Assembly: GCA_017432615.1 (NCBI GenBank)
Contig: JAFRIV010000013.1
Coordinates: forward strand, 32,689-96,688
Source of the DNA: Oscillospiraceae bacterium
GTDB lineage: Bacteria; Bacillota; Clostridia; Oscillospirales; Oscillospiraceae
Length of the DNA: 64,000 bases
Direction: 5' to 3'
Shown here piece after piece: positions 37,688-53,443 of this stretch. The stretch's first letter is position 1. The number at the start of each line of letters is the position of its first letter. The notes beneath the pieces are model-generated. The model made no database searches. It was not told where the DNA came from and was given only the letters and a program-made list of their open reading frames with translations. The translations under genes and the position numbers were made by a program.

Positions 37688-38340
37688 GAACAAAAGAACA
37701 GGTAAACAATATTGTGTCCGCCCTTTTGGCGGAGTATCCGGAAGCAGACTGCACACTGGATTATGCCAAACCGTATGAGCTTCTGTTTTCCGTGCGCCTG
37801 GCTGCGCAGTGTACCGATGAGCGGGTAAATCAGGTTACGCCTGCGCTTTTTGAACGCTTTCCGACACTGGAGGCATTTGCCTCTGCGGATGTGAAAGAAG
37901 TAGAGCGGTATGTCCATTCCTGCGGCTTTTACCATGCCAAGGCGAGAGATATCGTGGCCTGTGCCGGTGTACTGCTGGAAAAGCATAATGGAGAAGTCCC
38001 TTCAACCATGGAAGAACTGACGGCACTTCCCGGAGTCGGGAGAAAAACTGCCAATCTGATCCTCGGAGATGTTTTTCATGTTCCCGGGAGTACGGTAGTG
38101 GATACGCACTGTATCCGACTCAGCAACCGGCTGGGACTGGTGGACGGGATCAAAGAACCGGAAAAAATCGAACGGGAACTGCGGAAGATCCTGCCGCCGG
38201 AGCACTCCTCCACATTCTGTCACTGTCTTGTGCTTCACGGGCGTGCGGTATGCGATGCCCGTAAGCCGCATTGTGAAAAATGCTGTCTGAAAGAAAACTG
38301 TCAAACTTATGAGGAGATAAATCGATGCGAAACGGAATGA
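37684..38340 (+). CDS. nth: endonuclease III
   Basis: HhH-GPD motif LPGVGRKTANL and the [4Fe-4S] loop CDARKPHCEKCCLKENC. The ATG at 37684 overlaps the dnaE stop. Confidence 0.9.
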   Translation: MRTKEQVNNIVSALLAEYPEADCTLDYAKPYELLFSVRLAAQCTDERVNQVTPALFERFPTLEAFASADVKEVERYVHSCGFYHAKARDIVACAGVLLEKHNGEVPSTMEELTALPGVGRKTANLILGDVFHVPGSTVVDTHCIRLSNRLGLVDGIKEPEKIERELRKILPPEHSSTFCHCLVLHGRAVCDARKPHCEKCCLKENCQTYEEINRCETE

Positions 38341-39089
38341 AAGTAAAAGTAACTCTTTTCCTGGTACTGTTCCTTGTTGTCATAGCCCTGATCATTTATA
38401 TTATGACGAGCGGCAGCACGACAGAACGGGAACTTTATAATCCGAACCCTGTTGTGGCTACGGCACCCCCTGTGACCACAGCTACCCCGGTTCCGACCCC
38501 TGTACCCACTCCTGCGACCCCCGCTCCCACTCCGGTTCCGACGTTTTCCCCCACGCCCTATCAACCGACGATCACTCCCTATTATGCTCCAACCCCGACG
38601 CCCTATGCCTATACAGTTCCCACGCCGGACATTTTCCTTCATGAAACCCCGGTTCCCTATGCAGAGGCAACCCCGTTTGCCATTTTTTCCACCCCTTCTG
38701 TTTCGGGTACTTTCACATCGGATTCCGGTGCGCGGCTGAATATTCATGCAGACTGGATCGTAATACCTTCGAACACCACAGCAGAAATATCAGTGATCGT
38801 TTATGCCGATCATTATTCGATCCAGCACCATTCTTATGAGTCTCTTTTCGTAACGCTTGGCAACAGCACACAGACGCTTTATGCCAGCGAGATCTATTCT
38901 GACAGCAATGAACTTCAGCATACCGAGCTCGGCAGGACCTCATTTACGATCCCGTATACACCGGGTCAGCTGCAGACCTGGCCGCTTGATGTCAAGTGGA
39001 GGTTTAACGGAACCTACGGAAAAGACGCCAACGGGAATCCGATTTCTCTGGATACCATAGAATGCGGAGGAATTCTTACGATTTCTTAA
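38325..39089 (+). CDS. hypothetical membrane-anchored protein with Pro/Thr-rich linker
   Basis: 254 aa. TM segment VTLFLVLFLVVIALIIYIM, a linker of PVPTP repeats, and a C-terminal globular domain. An alternative start is at 38337. Confidence 0.5.
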   Translation: MRNGMKVKVTLFLVLFLVVIALIIYIMTSGSTTERELYNPNPVVATAPPVTTATPVPTPVPTPATPAPTPVPTFSPTPYQPTITPYYAPTPTPYAYTVPTPDIFLHETPVPYAEATPFAIFSTPSVSGTFTSDSGARLNIHADWIVIPSNTTAEISVIVYADHYSIQHHSYESLFVTLGNSTQTLYASEIYSDSNELQHTELGRTSFTIPYTPGQLQTWPLDVKWRFNGTYGKDANGNPISLDTIECGGILTIS

Positions 39090-41427: not shown

Positions 41428-42633
41428 ATGGCGGAACAGGTAAACATCCGCATGATGGGCTATTTTGCCATTGAAGCAAATGGCACTGTTCATGAGGAAC
41501 TGATGGCCAAAAGCCGGAAAGGGGTCAGCCTGATCCAGTATCTGGTTCTGGAACAGGGCAGACCGGTTTCCAGTCAGCGCCTTATTCGCGAACTCTGGTC
41601 AGGGAGTCGAAACGGAAATCCGGAAAATGCGCTCAAAACCATGGTAAGCAGGATGCGTTCTTCTCTCAATGAAATTTCACCCGGGCTGGGAATGTGCATT
41701 GTTTCCGGGCAGGGGGGTTACCGCTGGTGCTGTGCGGAAAATGTGCTGATCGATGTTCTGAAAATAATCGATCTCCTGAAAGAACTGCATACCGAGCTTG
41801 CGGCAGAAGAGAGGATAGTCCGGACAGAACATCTCCTGGAGTTGTACAGAGGGGATCTGTATCTTACGGGTGACCTTTTCAGCGGGCAGACGATGTGCAA
41901 CTGGCTGCATAATGAGTATCTCAATGCAGTCTACCGAATGGTCGACGCGCTGAAAGAAAGAGAAGAATATAACCGTATTTGCGAGATCTGCCGGAAAGCG
42001 ACCAAAGTTGATGATCTGGATGAACAGCTTCATATAGAACTGATGCAGGCAATGGTCAACTTAAACCGTGTTTCGGATGCCGCAGCGGAATATCTTGCTT
42101 TGCGGAAAAACAGCCGCCAGATTCTGGATGCGGAACCGGGACAAAATGTGCAGGAAGCTTATGAAACACTTGCCGACGCAGGAAAGACCATAAAATTCAA
42201 TCTTGACGTCATTCGCAACGAATTACTGGAACGGGAAGATGAGTGGAAAGGCCCCTTCTTTTGCGATTATCCTGTTTTCAAGGAAATCTATAACATCCAG
42301 ATGAGAAATCTGGAACGTCTCGGTTCCACGATGTTTCTTGCGGTGATCATGCTGGGCAATCTGGAAAACAGCAGCATGACCGGTAAAACACAAAGCTGTA
42401 TGGCCGGGCTGCAGGAAATTTTACGAATGAATATGCGAAAAGGGGACATTATTACCCGCTTTTCCGAAAATACGTTTGCTATGCTTCTGCCGATGGTCAA
42501 TTATTCTACGGGAAGCCTGGTAATGGAGCGAATTGAGCATCTGTATTATCAGGAATATGCCGCGTTGGCGATTCCGTTCCACGTACGTATCAGTCCGCTG
42601 GGACAAACGCCGCTTGTAAAAGTAAAAGGATAA
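41428..42633 (+). CDS. SARP-type regulator (OmpR-like winged helix + BTAD) fused to a degenerate GGDEF-like domain
   Basis: N-terminus IRMMGYFAIEANG...QRLIRELW...ALKTMVSRMRSSL...GGYRW, then a BTAD-like helical region. The C-terminus reads RKGDIITRFSENTFAMLLP, where canonical GGDEF domains read R..D...RxGGDEFxxxLP. Confidence 0.65.
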   Translation: MAEQVNIRMMGYFAIEANGTVHEELMAKSRKGVSLIQYLVLEQGRPVSSQRLIRELWSGSRNGNPENALKTMVSRMRSSLNEISPGLGMCIVSGQGGYRWCCAENVLIDVLKIIDLLKELHTELAAEERIVRTEHLLELYRGDLYLTGDLFSGQTMCNWLHNEYLNAVYRMVDALKEREEYNRICEICRKATKVDDLDEQLHIELMQAMVNLNRVSDAAAEYLALRKNSRQILDAEPGQNVQEAYETLADAGKTIKFNLDVIRNELLEREDEWKGPFFCDYPVFKEIYNIQMRNLERLGSTMFLAVIMLGNLENSSMTGKTQSCMAGLQEILRMNMRKGDIITRFSENTFAMLLPMVNYSTGSLVMERIEHLYYQEYAALAIPFHVRISPLGQTPLVKVKG

Positions 42634-42648
42634 AAAAGGAGAAACACA

Positions 42649-42987
42649 GTGGCTACAGTTGAACAGCTGAAACAATTCGGCGCAAATACGGAAGAAGGCA
42701 TTTCAAGATGTATGGGCAGCGAAGCGTTTTATCTCCGTATGGTCGGGCTGCTCTCCAAAGACAATAACTTTGAAGCGTTGAAAAAAGCACTGGCCGAGGA
42801 TGATTTAACGACCGCTTTTGAAAGAGCGCATGCGCTGAAAGGTGTGCTTGCCAATCTTTCTCTGACGCCTGTTCTGAAGCCTGTCAGTGAGATGACGGAA
42901 CTGCTGCGTGCTCATACAGAAACAGATTATACTTCTCTGCTCTCGGAAGCCGAGGAACAGATGAATAAACTGTTTGCAATTTTATAA
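42649..42987 (+). CDS. Hpt (histidine phosphotransfer) domain protein
   Basis: 112 aa with the HALKGVLANLSL (HxxKG) motif. GTG start with RBS AAAGGAG. Confidence 0.75.
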   Translation: MATVEQLKQFGANTEEGISRCMGSEAFYLRMVGLLSKDNNFEALKKALAEDDLTTAFERAHALKGVLANLSLTPVLKPVSEMTELLRAHTETDYTSLLSEAEEQMNKLFAIL

Positions 42988-43016: not shown

Positions 43017-43841
43017 ATGAGCCGACGGATCTGGCAGATCTTTTTGCTGGCAGTTTTGATGACCGTACTGTTTTTCTGCGCAACTGTTTCAGCCTATGCT
43101 GACAGCGGTACAGCGCTCTGGCCGGTACAGATAGGAGTCAGCAACAGCAGCGGCAAGCTGTTGGTGGATGCAAACGGTGCGTCCAACGGGTATTTTTTTG
43201 CTGCAGTAAGCGGCAGTACCAGCCACAGGCTGAAACTGCGTGTTGTGAAGGACGGCACAACGCTGACATATGATCTGAATACCAATGCCGCTTTTGAACT
43301 GTTTCCGCTGCAGTTGGGAGACGGGTATTATGAAATAGTCCTCTATGAAAATGTTTCAGGGAAAAAATACTCGCAGGAGGGCAGCGTCGGTCTTTATGTA
43401 ACACTTTCACGGCCGGATGCAGCTTTCCTGGTACCAAGCCAGTATCTCAATTACACGCAGGCGTCAGAATGTATCGCTATGGCCGACAAACTCTGTGCTG
43501 GAAAAAGTGAGAAAGAAGCCTTTGATGCAATCTGCAAATTCATGAAGACCTCTTTTGTCTACGATTTTATCAAGGCAATAAACATAAAAGCCGGACAACT
43601 CCCGGACATAGACGGATCGTATGCTAAAAAGATGGGGGTATGTCAGGATCTGTCGGCTATTATGGTGGCAATGCTGCGTACACAGGGTATTCCGTCCAGG
43701 CTGATTATCGGATATGCCGACAGCCAGTATCACGCCTGGACAATGACAACAATCAACGGGCAGGATTCCTTTTTTGATCCGACTGCCGCTATTGCAGCTA
43801 TCAGCCAGGTCAAAGACTATTCCATGGAACGGTATTATTAA
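43017..43841 (+). CDS. secreted transglutaminase-like cysteine protease-fold protein
   Basis: Signal peptide ...LFFCATVSAYA. Core GVCQDLSAIMVAMLR...YHAWT...FFDPT supplies a Cys-His-Asp triad. Confidence 0.75.
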   Translation: MSRRIWQIFLLAVLMTVLFFCATVSAYADSGTALWPVQIGVSNSSGKLLVDANGASNGYFFAAVSGSTSHRLKLRVVKDGTTLTYDLNTNAAFELFPLQLGDGYYEIVLYENVSGKKYSQEGSVGLYVTLSRPDAAFLVPSQYLNYTQASECIAMADKLCAGKSEKEAFDAICKFMKTSFVYDFIKAINIKAGQLPDIDGSYAKKMGVCQDLSAIMVAMLRTQGIPSRLIIGYADSQYHAWTMTTINGQDSFFDPTAAIAAISQVKDYSMERYY

Positions 43842-43853
43842 GGAGGAGAGAAT

Positions 43854-44897
43854 ATGGCAAGAAAGCAAAACGGACTTTCCAGTGCAGAGCTGAGCAACTT
43901 CTGCGGACAGGTGGCACTGATTCTGGAGGCAGGGCTTCCGTTATATGACGGGATGGAGACTCTTGCAGGCACAGAATCCGGAACCGGGTCTGACGGCATG
44001 TATCAGGCAGTAAGCCGCGGCGTCAATGAAACAGGCAGCCTGTATGATGCACTGAAAGGAGATGAACGCTGGCCGTCTTATCTTGTAGAGATGATCGGCA
44101 TCGGAGAACGTTCCGGGCATCTGGAGAAAGTCATGCGCGGGTTGGAAAAGTACTACGCAAGAGAGGACAGAATCCGCTCTTCCGTCGTCAGTGCGGTAAC
44201 TTATCCGATGGTTCTCAGTGTGATGCTTGTATTGATCGTATTCATCCTGCTGTGGAAGGTCCTCCCTGTATTCCGCCGGGTGCTCAACTCCATGGGCGTC
44301 GGGATGTCGGAAACGGGCAGCGCCCTGATGAAGGTAGGGTCAATTGTCGGATGGATCGTGCTGGTGCTGGTGGTGGTACTGCTGGTGGCAGCCCTTGCAC
44401 TGGTGATCCTCAGCCGGACGAAATACCGGGATAAAGTTATCGATCTGGTACAGAAAATTCCCGTTATAGCCCGGCTGAACAGGAAGCTCTCCGCTTCCCG
44501 TGTTTCCAGTGTGCTCTCCATGATGCTTTCCTCCGGTTTTCCGACGGAAGAGGCATTGGACATGACAAGTTCTGTCCTTTCCGACCCTGCTGCTGCAGAA
44601 AAGGTGAAGAGTATCCGCACGGGGCTTGACGAAGGGAAAACCTTTGCCGATGCCATTTCCGATACGGGCCTTTTTGATGAGCTGCATTCCCGCATGATCA
44701 AGATGGGGTGCGCCACCGGACATGAAGACCAGGTGCTGGGAAAGCTTTCAGAGCTGTATGAAGAGCAGGTGGAAGATGATATCAGCAGGCTGATTGCAAT
44801 CATCGAGCCGACGCTTGTTGCGCTGCTGGCTGTTGTTATCGGGGCAGTGCTGCTTTCTGTCATGCTGCCGATGGCAGGGATCCTGACCAGCCTTTGA
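43854..44897 (+). CDS. type II secretion / type IV pilus platform protein (GspF/PilC family)
   Basis: 347 aa with two T2SSF repeats, three TM segments, and C-terminal ...IEPTLVALLAVVIGAVLLSVMLP. Confidence 0.85.
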   Translation: MARKQNGLSSAELSNFCGQVALILEAGLPLYDGMETLAGTESGTGSDGMYQAVSRGVNETGSLYDALKGDERWPSYLVEMIGIGERSGHLEKVMRGLEKYYAREDRIRSSVVSAVTYPMVLSVMLVLIVFILLWKVLPVFRRVLNSMGVGMSETGSALMKVGSIVGWIVLVLVVVLLVAALALVILSRTKYRDKVIDLVQKIPVIARLNRKLSASRVSSVLSMMLSSGFPTEEALDMTSSVLSDPAAAEKVKSIRTGLDEGKTFADAISDTGLFDELHSRMIKMGCATGHEDQVLGKLSELYEEQVEDDISRLIAIIEPTLVALLAVVIGAVLLSVMLPMAGILTSL

Positions 44898-44916
44898 TGC
44901 CGCAGGGAGGAGCCAC

Positions 44917-45222
44917 ATGAACCGGCGAGATGTAATAAAACTGGTGATTTTTGCAGCAGTACTGGTCTGTGCCTTGCTGCTGATCAACCGTATTGACATA
45001 GCGCAGGGCACCGCCGAAAATGAGATCGTTCGGGACGCGATCCGCAATGCTGCCGTTACCTGCTATGCAGTTGAAGGTGCATACCCGGATTCTGTCGATT
45101 ATCTGCGCGAACATTATCGCCTTGCGTATGATGAAAATCGTTATCTGGTCACCTATGAGGCTTTTGCCTCCAACAGGATTCCGGATATCTATGTAACGGA
45201 GAGGGGGCAGAAGTTACCTTGA
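44917..45222 (+). CDS. small pilin-topology protein (non-canonical N-terminus; GspG/ComGC-like C-terminal motif)
   Basis: 101 aa. MNRRD leader, then hydrophobic VIKLVIFAAVLVCALLLI. Later comes CYAVEGAYPDSVDYL, which resembles the G.YP.sL..L motif of major pseudopilins. Confidence 0.5.
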   Translation: MNRRDVIKLVIFAAVLVCALLLINRIDIAQGTAENEIVRDAIRNAAVTCYAVEGAYPDSVDYLREHYRLAYDENRYLVTYEAFASNRIPDIYVTERGQKLP

Positions 45223-45734
45223 ACAGAAACAGTGCTCCTTCCCACGTCATATCCGGCGTGTTTGTGTTTCTCCTGCTGGGGATATTTGCCGTTTTTTCCA
45301 CCGTGATGGTGCTTCTCGGCGTAAAAGCCTATCGTTCTGCGGTAGAGCGTACCGGGATGCATAACACGGCGCGCATCAACACGGCATATATCCGCACCAT
45401 GCTTCGAGCAGACGATGAAACAGGTACTTTTGCCGTGGAGGAAGTAACCGGTACCGCTATGGAAAACGGTACGGTTACGGACGTCTCTGTAGAAACACTG
45501 ACGCTGCGTAACAACTATGACGGAGAAGAGTATATTACCCGTATCTATGTGTACGGCGGCAGCCTGCGGGAGTGGTTTACGCGGGCGGAAGAACCGTTTC
45601 GCGCAGATGGCGGCGAAGTAGTGTGCCCGGCAGAAGAACTTACGGCAGAGCTGGATGAGAATCTCCTTACAGTACGGGTACGTGCCGGTGAAGAATGGTC
45701 TACCGTTTATCTGGCACTCCGTGCCGGCACGTAG
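45219..45734 (+). CDS. small membrane-anchored protein, pilin-topology (possibly DUF4860-like)
   Basis: 171 aa. The TTG start overlaps the upstream stop. MNRNSAPSHVISG is followed by VFVFLLLGIFAVFSTVMVLLGV. Confidence 0.45.
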   Translation: MNRNSAPSHVISGVFVFLLLGIFAVFSTVMVLLGVKAYRSAVERTGMHNTARINTAYIRTMLRADDETGTFAVEEVTGTAMENGTVTDVSVETLTLRNNYDGEEYITRIYVYGGSLREWFTRAEEPFRADGGEVVCPAEELTAELDENLLTVRVRAGEEWSTVYLALRAGT

Positions 45735-45746
45735 AGAGGAGAAGAA

Positions 45747-46142
45747 ATGAAACCAAAAAATCATAGCAATGCGCTTTTGATAGAACTGCTGATCGTGGTA
45801 TTTTTTTTCATGATCTCCGCCACGGTTTTACTTCGCCTTTTCTCGGAAGCACGTTCTCAAAGCAAAAAAGCGGAGATACTGGCTGCTGCAACAGTGCAGG
45901 CACAGAATGTAGCCGAGCAGCTTTATGCCAGCAATGACCGGGAAGAAAAACTGCTGCAGCTGGGCTTTGCCGGACAGGAAGACGGATGGACTCTTTTAAA
46001 AGAGGACTACACCATTCTGGTGCAGCTTAAGCAGGAACAGACCACCGGCGGTACGCTCTTCCAGGATGCGGTAAAAATCGAAATGGGCGGGGAAACCCTG
46101 CTCACGCTCCCCTGTTTCCGCTATGAGGAGGTGGCTGCATGA
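45747..46142 (+). CDS. pseudopilin-like protein with degenerate prepilin N-terminus
   Basis: 131 aa. MKPKNHSN-ALLIELLIVVFFFMISATVLL has Glu at +5 relative to Ala, as in FTLIE, but Asn instead of Gly at -1. Confidence 0.55.
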   Translation: MKPKNHSNALLIELLIVVFFFMISATVLLRLFSEARSQSKKAEILAAATVQAQNVAEQLYASNDREEKLLQLGFAGQEDGWTLLKEDYTILVQLKQEQTTGGTLFQDAVKIEMGGETLLTLPCFRYEEVAA

Positions 46143-46579
46143 ACCGGAAAAGCAATGTAAGCCTCGGGCCGGGAGCTTCCTCGCTGATTTTGATCTTCGT
46201 GGTACTGAGCATGGCAGTACTGGGTATGCTTTCGCTGATGACGAGTCAGAATGATCTGCGTCTCTCCGAAAGAAATGTTCAGGTAACCGAGGCTGTCTAT
46301 ACCCTGAATGCGCAGGCAGAACGCCGCCGGGCAGAGATCGACGAGATCCTGATCCGGTGCGCTGCACAGACCGGAAATGAGGAAGCTTATCTGACAATGG
46401 CCGGAGAGGCAATGCCGGAAGATGTGATTCTGGAAGATCATGTGATCTCGTGGTATGAATCAGATGGAGGGAGGACGCTGGACTGTGCGCTGGAGATCTC
46501 CCCGCTTGGTGAAAAAGAACGAACAGCCTGGATCAGATATGATCTGACAGCGGAAACGGAGGACGCATGGAATTGGTAG
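46139..46579 (+). CDS. small membrane-anchored protein, pilin-topology
   Basis: 146 aa. MNRKSNVSLGPG-ASSLILIFVVLSMAVLGMLSLM. ATGA overlap with the upstream gene. Confidence 0.45.
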   Translation: MNRKSNVSLGPGASSLILIFVVLSMAVLGMLSLMTSQNDLRLSERNVQVTEAVYTLNAQAERRRAEIDEILIRCAAQTGNEEAYLTMAGEAMPEDVILEDHVISWYESDGGRTLDCALEISPLGEKERTAWIRYDLTAETEDAWNW

Positions 46580-47619
46580 ATATTCTTCGCCGTGCCGTAG
46601 AATTGGGCGGATCGGATATATTTGTGGTCCCCGGATCCTCGGTAATGGTGAAAGTCGATAACAATATGGTACCCCTTACGCAGGAGAAGCTTCTGCCTAA
46701 AGATACCGAAGCGCTGGTAGGCTGTATGTACGAGATTGCCCGCCGTGATTATAATCTGCTGGAACGGGACGGAGATGACGACTTCTCTTTCGCCATTCTG
46801 GATGTCAGCCGTTTTCGCTGCAATGCGTATAAGCAGCGCGGCACGGTTGCCGCAATCTGCCGTATCGTTAATTTTGAACTGCCCAATGCTTCCGAACTGC
46901 AGATCCCTTCTCTGGTGATGGAGCTTTCCAAACTGCGTAGCGGAATGGTGCTGGTAACAGGACCGGCCGGAAGCGGAAAAAGCACAACACTTGCCTGCAT
47001 TGTAGACAAGATCAACGCGGAACGGCAGGCACATATTGTGACCATTGAAGATCCTATTGAATATCTGCACAGACACAACAAATCCCTCGTTTCCCAGAGA
47101 GAAGTTCCCAACGATGCGGCAACATTCTCCCGGGCACTGCGTGCGGCCTTACGACAGGCACCGGATGTGATCATGCTCGGTGAAATGAGAGACCTGGACA
47201 CGATCCGCACCGCTATTACCGCAGCTGAAACGGGACATCTGCTGCTGTCTTCCCTGCATACCATCGGAGCGGCAAAAACGGTTGACCGCGTGATCGATAC
47301 ATTTCCTGCGGAGCAGCAGGCACAGATTCGGGTGCAGCTCTCCATGGTACTGAAAGCAGTTGTTTCTCAGCGCCTGATCCCAACGATCGACGGACACCGC
47401 GTGGCCGTATTTGAGGTAATGACGGTCAACCCTGCCATTCAGAATATGATCCGCGACGGAAGGACCCATCAGATCGATAATGTGATCTTTGGCGGGAGCG
47501 ACAAGAGCATGATCTCCATGGATGCCGAGCTGCAGAAGATGGTACGTGAAGGAAAAATCACCCGAGAGAACGCACTGTTATATGCTGCCAATCCGGATAC
47601 GCTGTCGAAACGGATCTGA
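46567..47619 (+). CDS. pilT: PilT-family type IV pilus (retraction-type) ATPase
   Basis: 350 aa. Walker A GPAGSGKST, IVTIEDPIEYLH, SQREV, Walker B DVIMLGEMRD, His box TGHLLLSSLHT, and AIQNMIRDG, the counterpart of the PilT AIRNLIRE motif. There is no PilB-type N-terminal or zinc-finger region. Confidence 0.85.
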   Translation: MELVDILRRAVELGGSDIFVVPGSSVMVKVDNNMVPLTQEKLLPKDTEALVGCMYEIARRDYNLLERDGDDDFSFAILDVSRFRCNAYKQRGTVAAICRIVNFELPNASELQIPSLVMELSKLRSGMVLVTGPAGSGKSTTLACIVDKINAERQAHIVTIEDPIEYLHRHNKSLVSQREVPNDAATFSRALRAALRQAPDVIMLGEMRDLDTIRTAITAAETGHLLLSSLHTIGAAKTVDRVIDTFPAEQQAQIRVQLSMVLKAVVSQRLIPTIDGHRVAVFEVMTVNPAIQNMIRDGRTHQIDNVIFGGSDKSMISMDAELQKMVREGKITRENALLYAANPDTLSKRI

Positions 47620-47630
47620 AGGAGGCTGCC

Positions 47631-48188
47631 ATGATACTGGATAAAAATTATTTTAACAATATTCGGCTGGAAACCGTAAGAAAAAAATTCTATAACGCCG
47701 ATGCGGTAGACCGCCTTCTTGTGGATATCCGCAGCAAAGCAGACGGAATGACGAGGGAGCTTCTTCAGGCCAGAGCGGAATGCGAGGATGCCCTGAAGAC
47801 AGCGGAAGCGCTGCGGGAAGAGAATGAAGACCTTCGCAACAAAGGGAGAGTGCTTTCCCAGGAGATCCTTTCGCTTCGGGAAGATCTGAAAAATGCCCAA
47901 CAGAGTGAGGTTGAGGTGCCGGATACGGATGACCTGACACAGCGTCTTGAAGAAGCAGAAAAAGCAAAGCAGGCAGTTGTAGCCCGTTCCCGGGCAAGAC
48001 AGGAAGAGGTGGTAGAGAAGATGGAGACGCTTCTCTCCTCCCTGCGAGAACTGCAGAATCGATCCATGGAACAGATCAACGCCCAATGGGAAGAGATCCT
48101 TTCCAGCCTGGAGGACGTACCGCTCGATCTGACAGAGAAGGTCGGCCAGATCGCAAAAGAACTCAATGAAATAGAGGAGCTGCAGTAG
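47631..48188 (+). CDS. DivIVA-domain coiled-coil protein
   Basis: 185 aa. N-terminus F..IRLETVRKKFYNADAVDRLLVDI resembles the DivIVA F..RGYd..eVd.fL motif. The rest is E/K/L/R-rich coiled coil. Confidence 0.55.
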   Translation: MILDKNYFNNIRLETVRKKFYNADAVDRLLVDIRSKADGMTRELLQARAECEDALKTAEALREENEDLRNKGRVLSQEILSLREDLKNAQQSEVEVPDTDDLTQRLEEAEKAKQAVVARSRARQEEVVEKMETLLSSLRELQNRSMEQINAQWEEILSSLEDVPLDLTEKVGQIAKELNEIEELQ

Positions 48189-51806: not shown

Positions 51807-52331
51807 TTATGATCCGGCTGCTGAGAGAAAGTGATCCATGATCCTCGACAGGGGCTTAAACAGAACCAGCACCGTGAGAAAATTGGAAACGGCATGGATC
51901 AGATCATAGGGAATACCGGCGATCCACATGGCGATGTAACCACGCCATCCGCCTACGATGGCAAAATACCCAATGTACATCAGCGGCCCGAAAAGGAGGC
52001 CGTACGCTCCCGCAAGGACTGCCCATAGCAAAGGGGACCTGTTTCTGCGAAAGATCATGACCAGGACGACCAGCAGCGGCCAAATATACAAATAGGAGAA
52101 CCACCACAGATTGAAGCCGAAAAACAACCCTTCCAGCAGAATGTACACCCCGACGGTATACAACGCACGCCAGCCGAAATACACCGTTGCAAGTATGATC
52201 AGGAGCGCATTCAGATTCACATTGGGGATCGATGCAAGGGCTGTTTTAACGGAAAATATCAGGGCGGCGAAGAAGGCAAGCATACACAGATTCCGGATGG
52301 AAAGATTATCCGACGGTGTAGGTGAACTCAT
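51807..52331 (-). CDS. small polytopic membrane protein (ECF S-component-like)
   Basis: 174 aa with 5-6 TM segments. It overlaps the upstream DUF4430 gene by 26 nt; an alternative start is at 52283. Confidence 0.45.
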   Translation of the reverse strand: MSSPTPSDNLSIRNLCMLAFFAALIFSVKTALASIPNVNLNALLIILATVYFGWRALYTVGVYILLEGLFFGFNLWWFSYLYIWPLLVVLVMIFRRNRSPLLWAVLAGAYGLLFGPLMYIGYFAIVGGWRGYIAMWIAGIPYDLIHAVSNFLTVLVLFKPLSRIMDHFLSAAGS

Positions 52332-52725
52332 AGTGCTCCCCGTCTGAAATCACGGTGCTGTCAATGCCTGTTTCTATCCATTCCCCTCCCCTGGTGAGGC
52401 ACCACCAGGACTGATCCCGGTTCCAGTCGGCGGTTTCTCCGTCCACTGTGTCCACCATGAGGCCGTAAGGACCGTCTTCGCCGGAGAGCAATCCGTCTAC
52501 GGATCGCAGTGCACCTCCCAGCATCTCGGCGTCGGTATTTACTGTGAAAGAAGCAGATGCTCCGTTTCCGTGTATGACCTCCAATGTGATCGTCTTTGCT
52601 CCCTGAACGGGGATCGGACGATTGAAATGCCAGACCAGGAACACAGCAAGCAACAGAAAAATAAAAGCAGAGAATGCAATGATCTGTTTTTTCTTCATGG
52701 CAAAGATCCTCACTTGTTTTTTCAA
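52306..52725 (-). CDS. DUF4430 domain protein (transcobalamin-like beta domain), membrane-anchored
   Basis: 139 aa. N-terminal anchor, then ITLEVIHGNG...GLLSGEDGPYGLMVDTVDG...WW...NGEW....G....I.DG..YEF. Confidence 0.55.
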   Translation of the reverse strand: MKKQVRIFAMKKKQIIAFSAFIFLLLAVFLVWHFNRPIPVQGAKTITLEVIHGNGASASFTVNTDAEMLGGALRSVDGLLSGEDGPYGLMVDTVDGETADWNRDQSWWCLTRGGEWIETGIDSTVISDGEHYEFTYTVG

Positions 52726-52750
52726 TAAAGCCCGGTTCTAATAACGCAGA

Positions 52751-53443
52751 TCATTTCCCGTTCCTGTCAATGACCGAAAGGGTATTCATAATATAGGAGA
52801 AACGCCTCCCGAAGCCTTCAGCACTTTCAAGAGTGTAATGGGCGGCGGCGACAAGGCTGCCGTCGGCGGCAGGGATGATATACACCGTCTGCAGCCGGGC
52901 AGGGATTCCAGCGTTGTTTTTCATACCGGAGGCCTCTATCCGTATACAGCTGCCGGCACGATCCAGAAGGCATGATTCCGTGAGGATCTCATATTCTTTG
53001 GAAAGGCCTTCACTGACGGATGCGGTGACAGCGTCAACAGGATCCGGGCTGTAGATTACCTCAAGATAGTTTTCGGGATTTTGGGGGTCGTCGTAGAGGG
53101 AGAGAAAACATTCCCGACCGTCTTCGCTGTGCCGAACGAACGACTCATAATCATAGTCCATCTCGATTCCAATGATATCATTCCGGACATGCTCATATCG
53201 GACCGGCTCTTCCGTTCCCTCGAGCAGGATCACGGTTTCGAAGCGCTCCCCATCCTGTCTTTCCCTTTTCACTTCAGCTTCCGGTGATCCGGAAGATGCG
53301 GGCGGGCTGATAGTGCCTGCGGGCAAAACAGGTTCGGCAGTCACGGCAGAATTACCGCTCCTGCCGCAGCCGCTGAGCAGCGTCAGCAGCAATATCAAAG
53401 TCAGTGCAGAAGAGATCTTCGTTTTATTTACTGTTTTTCTCAT
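52751..53443 (-). CDS. lipoprotein, hypothetical
   Basis: 230 aa. Lipobox LTLLSGC after the signal peptide. Confidence 0.6.
   Translation of the reverse strand: MRKTVNKTKISSALTLILLLTLLSGCGRSGNSAVTAEPVLPAGTISPPASSGSPEAEVKRERQDGERFETVILLEGTEEPVRYEHVRNDIIGIEMDYDYESFVRHSEDGRECFLSLYDDPQNPENYLEVIYSPDPVDAVTASVSEGLSKEYEILTESCLLDRAGSCIRIEASGMKNNAGIPARLQTVYIIPAADGSLVAAAHYTLESAEGFGRRFSYIMNTLSVIDRNGK

Follow-up and report, generated by a model that had tools for sequence, protein, structure and literature searches.

A conserved seven-gene cassette

The DNA considered here (the window) is a stretch of 64,000 nt from an Oscillospiraceae bacterium, in which seven consecutive, translationally coupled genes on the forward strand encode two core components of type IV filament (T4F) machines, a platform protein and an ATPase, together with four small bitopic proteins and a transglutaminase-fold enzyme. 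The enzyme comes first in this cassette (43017..43841) and is followed by the PilC/GspF/ComGB-type platform (43854..44897; 347 aa), by the small proteins, which we call O2 (44917..45222; 101 aa), O3 (45219..45734; 171 aa), O4 (45747..46142; 131 aa) and O5 (46139..46579; 146 aa), and by a PilT/PilU-family, predicted hexameric ATPase (46567..47619; 350 aa). A first-pass annotation of this DNA had described a unit of six coupled genes beginning with the platform. All six open reading frames (ORFs) are found where it had placed them, and so are their junctions: the TTGA overlap at 45219-45222, the ATGA overlap at 46139-46142, the 13-nt overlap at 46567-46579, and gaps of 19 and 12 nt. The conserved unit is one gene longer, with the upstream transglutaminase-fold gene added to it, and both this obligatory gene and the cyclic di-GMP (c-di-GMP) and phosphorelay context of the cassette had been overlooked. 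GGAGG-type ribosome-binding sites lie ahead of the non-overlapping genes. Promoter-like sites are as frequent as in shuffled sequence, strong ones being present only before 39326 and 48378, and terminator-like sites did not mark the operon ends.

Homologues of O3 were aligned, and a scan of one genome per GTDB species with the resulting profile gave 80 loci. Synteny across Clostridia, which the first-pass annotation had proposed to survey, can thus be described from 80 species-level genomes, in all of which the order transglutaminase-PilC-O2-O3-O4-O5-PilT is fixed, on one strand. The enzyme gene is present in 75 of the 80 loci, the platform, O2 and O4 in 79 each, O3 in 80, O5 in 78 and PilT in 74, and where a gene is lacking the gap coincides with a contig end. 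The junctions recur as well, with a 4-nt overlap from O2 to O3 in 58/79 loci and from O4 to O5 in 72/78, and an overlap of O5 with PilT in 52/74. With the gene order seen again in 80 independent genomes at species level, and the 4-nt overlaps in most of the loci, chance is far from explaining the arrangement.

The cassette is carried for the most part by Clostridia of rumen and gut, whose labels are Oscillospiraceae, Christensenellales, Lachnospiraceae or just 'Clostridia', and eight cassette-bearing metagenome-assembled genomes are labelled Anaerolineae. Seven of these eight form one tight group with 92-99% PilT identity, and PilT of this group is ~80% identical to that of the nearest Clostridia. 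The minimum within the family is 60%, so this group lies inside the Clostridia range, which is the pattern expected from whole-unit transfer. The sequence relationships thus fit a transfer of all seven genes together into an Anaerolineae lineage.

The ATPase and the platform

The ATPase belongs to the T2SSE family (PF00437, 2.6e-43) and scores 411.5 bits against the curated PilT/PilU model TIGR01420, well over the cut-off of 319.1, with model positions 2-342 of 343 covered. Its scores against GspE, PilB, ComGA and TadA models (41-133 bits) are far under the cut-offs of those models. The same ranking is seen with solved structures, where PilT proteins give 282-317 bits and PilU 257, as compared with 135 for DotB, 85-96 for GspE, PilB and PilF, and 70 for BfpD; FlaI and VirB11 are likewise more distant than PilT and PilU. 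Very strong constraint is apparent among 75 orthologs, in which ~170 positions are at least 93% conserved, among them those of Walker A and Walker B, of the Asp and His boxes, and of the AIRNLIRE-type motif Q292-N293-x-I295-R296-D297-G298. The first-pass annotation had read all the secretion-ATPase boxes and the motif AIQNMIRDG correctly, and also the lack of a PilB-type N-terminal domain: the 350-aa protein aligns end to end with PilT from residue 1-3. It had assigned the ATPase to the PilT type and not to the PilB/ComGA type, naming a position inside the PilB/ComGA clade as the outcome that would overturn this. Model and structure scores put the protein outside that clade, and on their evidence it is a true PilT/PilU-family protein.

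The platform has the two repeats previously attributed to it, matching PF00482 (T2SSF) at 4.5e-43 in two stretches. GspF, PilC, HofC and ComGB models are all matched across the entire transmembrane core, each with a score below the curated cut-off. The protein begins at about position 55-75 of the GspF and PilC models, and is therefore of ComGB length.

Genes absent from the surroundings of the cassette

The search for further T4F genes covered two territories: the flanks of the 80 loci, taken as ±10 kb and amounting to ~1.3 Mb in all, and, around the cassette described here, gene maps with Pfam annotation of the window plus ~18 kb beyond it (~82 kb). No second T2SSE or T2SSF gene occurs within the flanks or in the window, so at the level of the locus PilT is the only motor, as first proposed. 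Neither territory (flanks and window) contains a prepilin ORF of the G/FTLIE type or a PilD-like ORF, the latter a weak negative, its only direct probe being one PilD sequence. The Pfam maps of called genes (~82 kb) contain no Peptidase_A24, no PilM, PilN or PilO family and no secretin; outside the cassette and its signalling neighbours, housekeeping and metabolic genes are all that they show. The earlier statement that the window lacks PilB, PilD, PilMNO, secretin and canonical pilin thus holds for the window and for ~18 kb beyond it, and the combination of PilB with PilM/PilN/PilO that defines the type IVa pilus is missing at the level of the locus.

Other identities for the region were considered and discarded. 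A defence system received nothing but generic P-loop noise from PADLOC, and a sporulation locus of the SpoIIIA-like kind or a competence locus was ruled out on gene content.

The four small proteins

The features that had suggested pilins, namely the leaders MNRRD, MNRNS, MKPKN and MNRKS, the LIELLIV core and the EGAYPDSVDYL motif, are all readable in the translations, and the canonical G(-1)/F(+1) site is indeed missing. Revision of start codons, by which the first-pass annotation thought standard sites might reappear, restores none: the O3 leader is translated, and Asn is the residue at -1 of O4 in 121/146 representatives. No pilin family reaches threshold for O2, O3, O4 or O5 in Pfam or NCBIfam. 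The label 'pilin' that all four had received is backed by sequence for O4, by no more than predicted architecture for O3 and O2, and by no more than topology for O5.

O4 is the one small protein whose sequence points to pilin ancestry. Its NCBIfam matches are all sub-threshold and recurrent, with ComGG in 32/69 orthologs and XpsI/GspI in 29/69, and further sub-threshold matches to ComGE, PilV, BasB, TadE-like proteins, PilA and GspH; 8/11 of the recurrent families are T4F pilins or pseudopilins. Aligned with PDB pilins, the O4 profile adopts the canonical E5 register, with Glu at +5, at marginal E values of 0.5-1. This Glu(+5), residue E13, is invariant in 69/69 orthologs. The residue at -1, N8, is Asn in 60/69 orthologs and otherwise Arg, His, Ser or Lys, never Gly. 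The O4 family comprises 572 clusters at 50% identity, and among 146 representatives with no more than 50% mutual identity the leader is eight residues long in 124, and position -1 is occupied by Gly in three, against the 121 with Asn. From these patterns, O4 is a minor-pilin relative, and Asn(-1) defines its family. The classical prepilin peptidase PilD requires Gly at -1, and O4, with Asn at this position, and O2, with no Gly, are therefore not classical prepilin peptidase substrates.

O3 matches PF16152 (DUF4860) at 2.1e-15 and 56.9 bits, against a gathering threshold of 25, and its homologues are all annotated with this family. Its AlphaFold (AF2) model, with a pLDDT (predicted local distance difference test) of 87.5, consists of a 57-residue N-terminal helix (8-64) and eight β-strands. 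The leader is conserved, with His9 and Ser12-Gly13 ahead of VFVFLLLG. His9 is encoded by CAT in 41 cases and CAC in 35, and Ser12 and Gly13 by four or five synonymous codons each; because the conserved residues vary by synonymous codons, the leader must be translated.

O2 has 436 homologues in the database, all 'hypothetical', and belongs to no family in Pfam or NCBIfam. It has an invariant core, C49-x-A-x-E-G-x-x-P, and its AF2 model (pLDDT 77.6) contains a 51-residue helix (3-53), a second helix (60-67) and a β-hairpin. In O5, G10-P11-G12-A13 stands just before the helix in 66/66 orthologs, and no family, PDB or profile match was found for this protein.

The first-pass annotation had looked to structure prediction, with Foldseek comparison against pilins, for a decision on the small proteins, and the outcome is divided. 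The O3 and O2 models are pilin-like in architecture, and neither has a Foldseek match in the PDB at E<=0.001: pilin TTHA1219 is matched by O3 at E ~0.3 (TM-score ~0.3), and the top match of O2 is the Neisseria gonorrhoeae pilin at E 5.7. As models, O2 and O3 look like the 'lollipops' of pilins, and we do not claim a pilin fold as proven. Profile and sequence searches of the PDB likewise gave marginal pilin matches for O4 and none for O2, O3 and O5. Scanned member by member against Pfam, the orthologs of O2, O4 and O5 brought up no pilin family and only noise, and NCBIfam scans of the ortholog sets were informative for O4 alone.

A lone extracytoplasmic Cys is kept in three of the small proteins (C49 in 80/80 for O2, C136 in 78/81 for O3 and C116 in 70/79 for O5). 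Classical pilins have a disulfide pair or no Cys, and the near-invariant single residue contrasts with this; the hosts are strict anaerobes. One apparent fusion, a 454-aa protein (P0338) in which an ABC-transporter-like membrane domain is joined to a full O4, most likely owes its existence to a frameshift or to chimeric assembly and is no real fusion.

The transglutaminase-fold enzyme

The first gene of the cassette encodes a protein in which a hydrophobic signal or anchor at the N-terminus is joined to a β-rich N-domain and to a Transglut_core domain (PF01841, 1.8e-12, 47.9 bits against a threshold of 23). All 38 of the 38 orthologs scanned match Transglut_core, and the triad Cys209, His239 and Asp254 is invariant. 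Among solved structures the closest to the enzyme is 3ISR (1.7e-7 by profile), described as a 'putative cysteine protease'. The protein is thus predicted to be an extracytoplasmic Cys-His-Asp enzyme, one whose sequence is compatible with cleavage and with cross-linking and cannot separate the two.

Signalling genes beside the cassette

Directly upstream of the cassette, on the same strand, lie genes for a regulator (41428..42633), made up of an OmpR-type winged helix, a BTAD domain and a GGDEF domain that has degenerated (matching Trans_reg_C, BTAD and GGDEF in Pfam), and for an Hpt phosphotransfer protein (42649..42987; Pfam Hpt, 4e-8). Such associations recur: a winged helix-BTAD-GGDEF-like regulator adjoins the cassette, on either side, in 30/80 loci, and an Hpt gene in 31/80. 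GGDEF cyclases are found near it in 16 loci, often directly 3' of pilT, REC-GGDEF-EAL proteins in 10 and hybrid histidine kinases in five. Signalling genes are the only recurrent neighbours beyond the cassette in the 80 loci.

In 29/29 orthologs of the regulator, R-[KRS]-G-D is found exactly five residues before the degenerate GGDEF motif (SENTF, FSPxx and similar). An RxxD I-site beside a degenerate GGDEF motif classically marks a c-di-GMP receptor, which is what the regulator is predicted to be. The protein resembles a SARP-type activator that senses c-di-GMP, and we know of no earlier description of this architecture. We infer that the cassette is under c-di-GMP and phosphorelay control, which fits a function in surface attachment.

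Near the cassette in six loci (for example L042:3281-5026, minus strand) there is also a gene in which a YkuD L,D-transpeptidase is fused to FlgD-type Ig domains, which is either a link to wall remodelling or a coincidence.

Comparison with known type IV filament systems

Under the 'generic' definition of the type IV filament superfamily (TFF), a system consists of an ATPase, a platform and a pilin (Denise et al. 2019, PMC6668835). The cassette supplies the T2SSE ATPase and the platform with two T2SSF repeats, and lacks the class III pilin, with Gly at -1 and Glu at +5.

Of the described systems, the type IVa pili of monoderms such as Clostridia and Streptococcus sanguinis share with the cassette a PilC-type platform, a PilT-family ATPase, regulation linked to c-di-GMP, and small bitopic N-in subunits whose N-terminal helix is long and of which one (O4) has Glu(+5). 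The cassette differs from them in that PilB, PilD, PilM/N/O and a canonical major pilin are missing in or near the locus, its subunits are without the G(-1) class III site, a transglutaminase-fold enzyme is obligatory, and the platform is of ComGB length. The Com pseudopilus (ComGA-GG) is similar in being a compact monoderm operon for a platform and a series of pilin-like proteins of 100-170 aa; O2 is of the size of ComGC, O4 orthologs weakly match ComGG and ComGE, and some Com minor pilins also have atypical N-termini. In contrast to Com, the ATPase of the cassette is of the PilT type and encoded last instead of first (128 bits against ComGA, cut-off 300), the platform scores 151.8 bits against ComGB (cut-off 240), and there are four and not five pilin-like genes, no ComC, ComEA or ComEC nearby, and in addition the transglutaminase-fold enzyme and the c-di-GMP regulators.

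The Tad/Flp system (type IVc) provides a functional precedent, with a single ATPase, CpaF/TadA, serving both directions. The motor of the cassette is of another clade (41 bits against TadA model TIGR03819, cut-off 373), and the cassette has no TadB/C pair, Flp pilins or TadV. The pseudopilus in type II secretion systems (T2SS; GspE/F/G-K) and the machinery that assembles the bindosome in archaea (BasABC-E-F) also combine a platform and an ATPase with a few pilin-like proteins, for an output other than a pilus, and GspI/XpsI and BasB are among the weak matches of O4 orthologs. However, both have GspE/FlaI-type ATPases and class III signal peptides and lack a transglutaminase-fold partner. The T2SS moreover needs a secretin, none of which appears in the gene maps, and its models are matched by the cassette proteins with 133 bits for GspE (cut-off 630) and 198 for GspF (cut-off 424). 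In LapD-LapG, a transglutaminase-like cysteine protease controlled by c-di-GMP releases an adhesin. The likeness to the cassette is one of logic only, in the combination of an extracytoplasmic transglutaminase-fold Cys protease, c-di-GMP and surface attachment: the family is BTLCP/DUF920 as opposed to Transglut_core, the setting is a diderm periplasm, and T4F components are absent.

A candidate self-contained machine and its alternatives

The reading that we favour, with a probability of about one half, is that the cassette encodes a self-contained, c-di-GMP-regulated machine of the T4F superfamily in monoderm bacteria of the rumen and gut. A hexamer of the PilT-type ATPase would dock on the platform as the machine's own motor and, by turning or lifting it, shuttle pilin-like proteins from the membrane into a short helical fibre or pseudopilus and back. 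Of the four, O2 is the smallest, the best conserved and the first to be encoded, and would be the main subunit, and O3, O4 and O5 a minor or tip set, with O4 and O2 used uncleaved or matured in some other way. The unit encodes no ATPase of the extension type, and the motor would therefore either be bidirectional, like Tad CpaF, or have taken over assembly. Outside the membrane, the transglutaminase-fold enzyme might trim or cross-link subunits, anchor the fibre or open the wall. Expression of the cassette would be switched on by the BTAD activator, with its degenerate GGDEF domain sensing c-di-GMP and with input from the Hpt phosphorelay, as part of a surface-attached lifestyle.

In the current model of type IV pili, PilB turns the platform clockwise and PilT counter-clockwise (PMC5424180). 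That one ATPase can drive a T4F machine in both directions is shown by the Tad motor CpaF (PMC6668835; preprint 10.64898/2026.02.24.707734), which is the precedent for a single motor.

Several points weigh against a machine that is complete in itself. The absence of pilB, pilD and pilA has been established at the level of the loci only, and prepilin peptidases, and even ATPases, can be common to several systems (PMC6668835). ATPases of the PilT clade are modelled as disassembly motors (PMC5424180). A Gly is kept just before the hydrophobic helix of O3 (SG/VF) and of O5 (GPG/A), both of which a classical peptidase could cleave. O2, O3 and O5 have no significant sequence match to any pilin and, for the modelled O2 and O3, no structural one, and hhalign comparison of the four profiles detects no relationship among O2-O5.

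These observations lead to the alternative that survives best, itself rather unlikely, in which the cassette is an accessory module of a conventional type IVa pilus, whose PilB, PilD, PilMNO and major pilin are encoded elsewhere in the host genome and to which it would supply a second platform, a minor or priming set of pilin-like proteins, an ATPase for retraction and an auxiliary enzyme. Retraction is classically driven by PilT, and the PilT of the cassette is a typical one, with ~300 bits to solved PilTs. Type IVa pilus genes are often scattered, with peptidases common to several systems (PMC6668835), many Gram-positive bacteria have several pil operons with pilT in only some of them (PMC3244431), and O3 and O5 have retained a Gly ahead of the helix. 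On the other side, the cassette has a platform of its own and always moves whole, even into Anaerolineae. Moreover, in ~1.3 Mb of flanks from 80 genomes the cassette never stands beside pilB, pilD, pilM or a canonical pilin, and the position that PilD needs to be Gly is without it in O2 and in all 69 O4 orthologs from the loci, and has it in just 3/146 O4 representatives.

Less probable again is a device without a fibre, akin to a T2SS pseudopilus or to the system that assembles the archaeal bindosome. PilC, PilT and the four bitopic proteins would here make up a piston or assembly apparatus in the membrane, which would serve to export the transglutaminase-fold enzyme or other surface proteins across the thick wall, or to position or activate them. 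The enzyme is encoded by the invariant first gene and carries a signal or an anchor, all the small proteins but one lack pilin homology detectable by sequence, and weak matches to BasB of the bindosome occur among O4 orthologs; T4F machines with outputs other than a fibre are known, as in the T2SS and the bindosome. Against this, a Sec-type signal suffices to carry the enzyme over the sole membrane, the neighbourhood offers no further recurrent candidate for a cargo, and the T2SS and Bas ATPases are of the GspE/FlaI type and not of the PilT type. Finally, if the cassette were what is left of a decaying pilus locus, its pilin genes degenerate and its function gone, this would account for the lost canonical prepilin sites and for the assembly genes absent nearby. 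Conservation effectively refutes such a reading: seven intact reading frames in 74-80 species, ~170 near-invariant PilT positions, an invariant catalytic triad and motifs, leader residues conserved over synonymously varied codons, and families of hundreds of 50%-identity clusters.

If the cassette does encode a self-contained machine, one may ask whether it represents an unrecognised class of T4F. We advance this tentatively, with the odds somewhat against it: such a class would be characterized by a PilT-clade ATPase as sole motor, subunits that bypass the peptidase, maturation, cross-linking or anchoring by a transglutaminase-fold enzyme, c-di-GMP control, and mobility between phyla as a seven-gene unit. 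We stop short of calling the cassette categorically new, as two of its core parts are orthodox and it may depend on PilB and PilD encoded elsewhere. The first-pass annotation had not recognised a described system here, and no account of one was found in the searchable literature, which contains no mention of DUF4860, no PilT-plus-PilC operon without PilB and none with a transglutaminase-like gene.

In the model used by the field, filaments are extended by ATPases of the PilB type and retracted by those of the PilT type, and every subunit must be cleaved by the peptidase; the cassette would test both rules. Were it autonomous, the direction of a motor would not be fixed by its clade, and the single-motor case of Tad would no longer be unique. 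Functions would also be gained for DUF4860 and for three families of 'hypothetical protein', and a transglutaminase-fold enzyme would be tied to filament biology. Profile-based tools for T4F would probably miss the cassette, as its proteins stay below threshold with every pilin profile and pilT is commonly deemed accessory. More generally, the cassette suggests that abundant Clostridia of the rumen and gut, most of them uncultured, have a surface structure under c-di-GMP control.

Other features of the region

Behind pilT, after a gap of 11 nt, a gene on the same strand (47631..48188), coupled to pilT in translation, encodes a 185-aa coiled-coil protein, present in 3/80 loci. It is lineage-specific and lies outside the conserved cassette, being restricted to the three closest relatives (L007-L009), where its length is ~265 aa. 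By eye its N-terminus resembles a DivIVA-type motif, and it has no significant family match.

Antisense 'ORF families' were found in 41-48 loci (L007-L086) and rejected as shadow ORFs over pilT, pilC and O3. They arise from composition and from the conservation of the sense genes, and are a trap for naive ORF clustering.

Elsewhere in the window, a 254-aa protein (38325-39089) that belongs to no Pfam family is anchored at its N-terminus and contains a long linker rich in Pro and Thr (PVPTPVPTPATPAPTPVPT...); it is probably a wall-spanning surface protein. Three consecutive genes without Pfam match (51807-53443, minus strand) encode a multi-pass membrane protein, an anchored protein of 130-139 aa, and a 230-aa protein whose signal is of the lipoprotein type (LLSGC). 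The 8 kb between 14000 and 22000 have a GC content of 0.41-0.43, as against ~0.50 elsewhere, and carry genes for a transaldolase, an FAA hydrolase, a dehydrogenase, a TRAP transporter (DctM and an NMT1-type binding protein) and a GntR regulator; this stretch may be a metabolic island gained by horizontal transfer.

Just left of the window lie dnaN, recF, gyrB and gyrA (L090:1-7023, 10 kb left of window position 1), and between the gyrA-RNase H block and the window there is an insertion sequence element with an rve-family integrase/transposase and a small partner ORF (L090:8266-9482). Cumulative GC skew rises over nearly the whole window. Together, the gyr and dnaN genes and the rising skew indicate that the region is origin-proximal and on the leading strand, with the cassette ~55 kb from the likely oriC.

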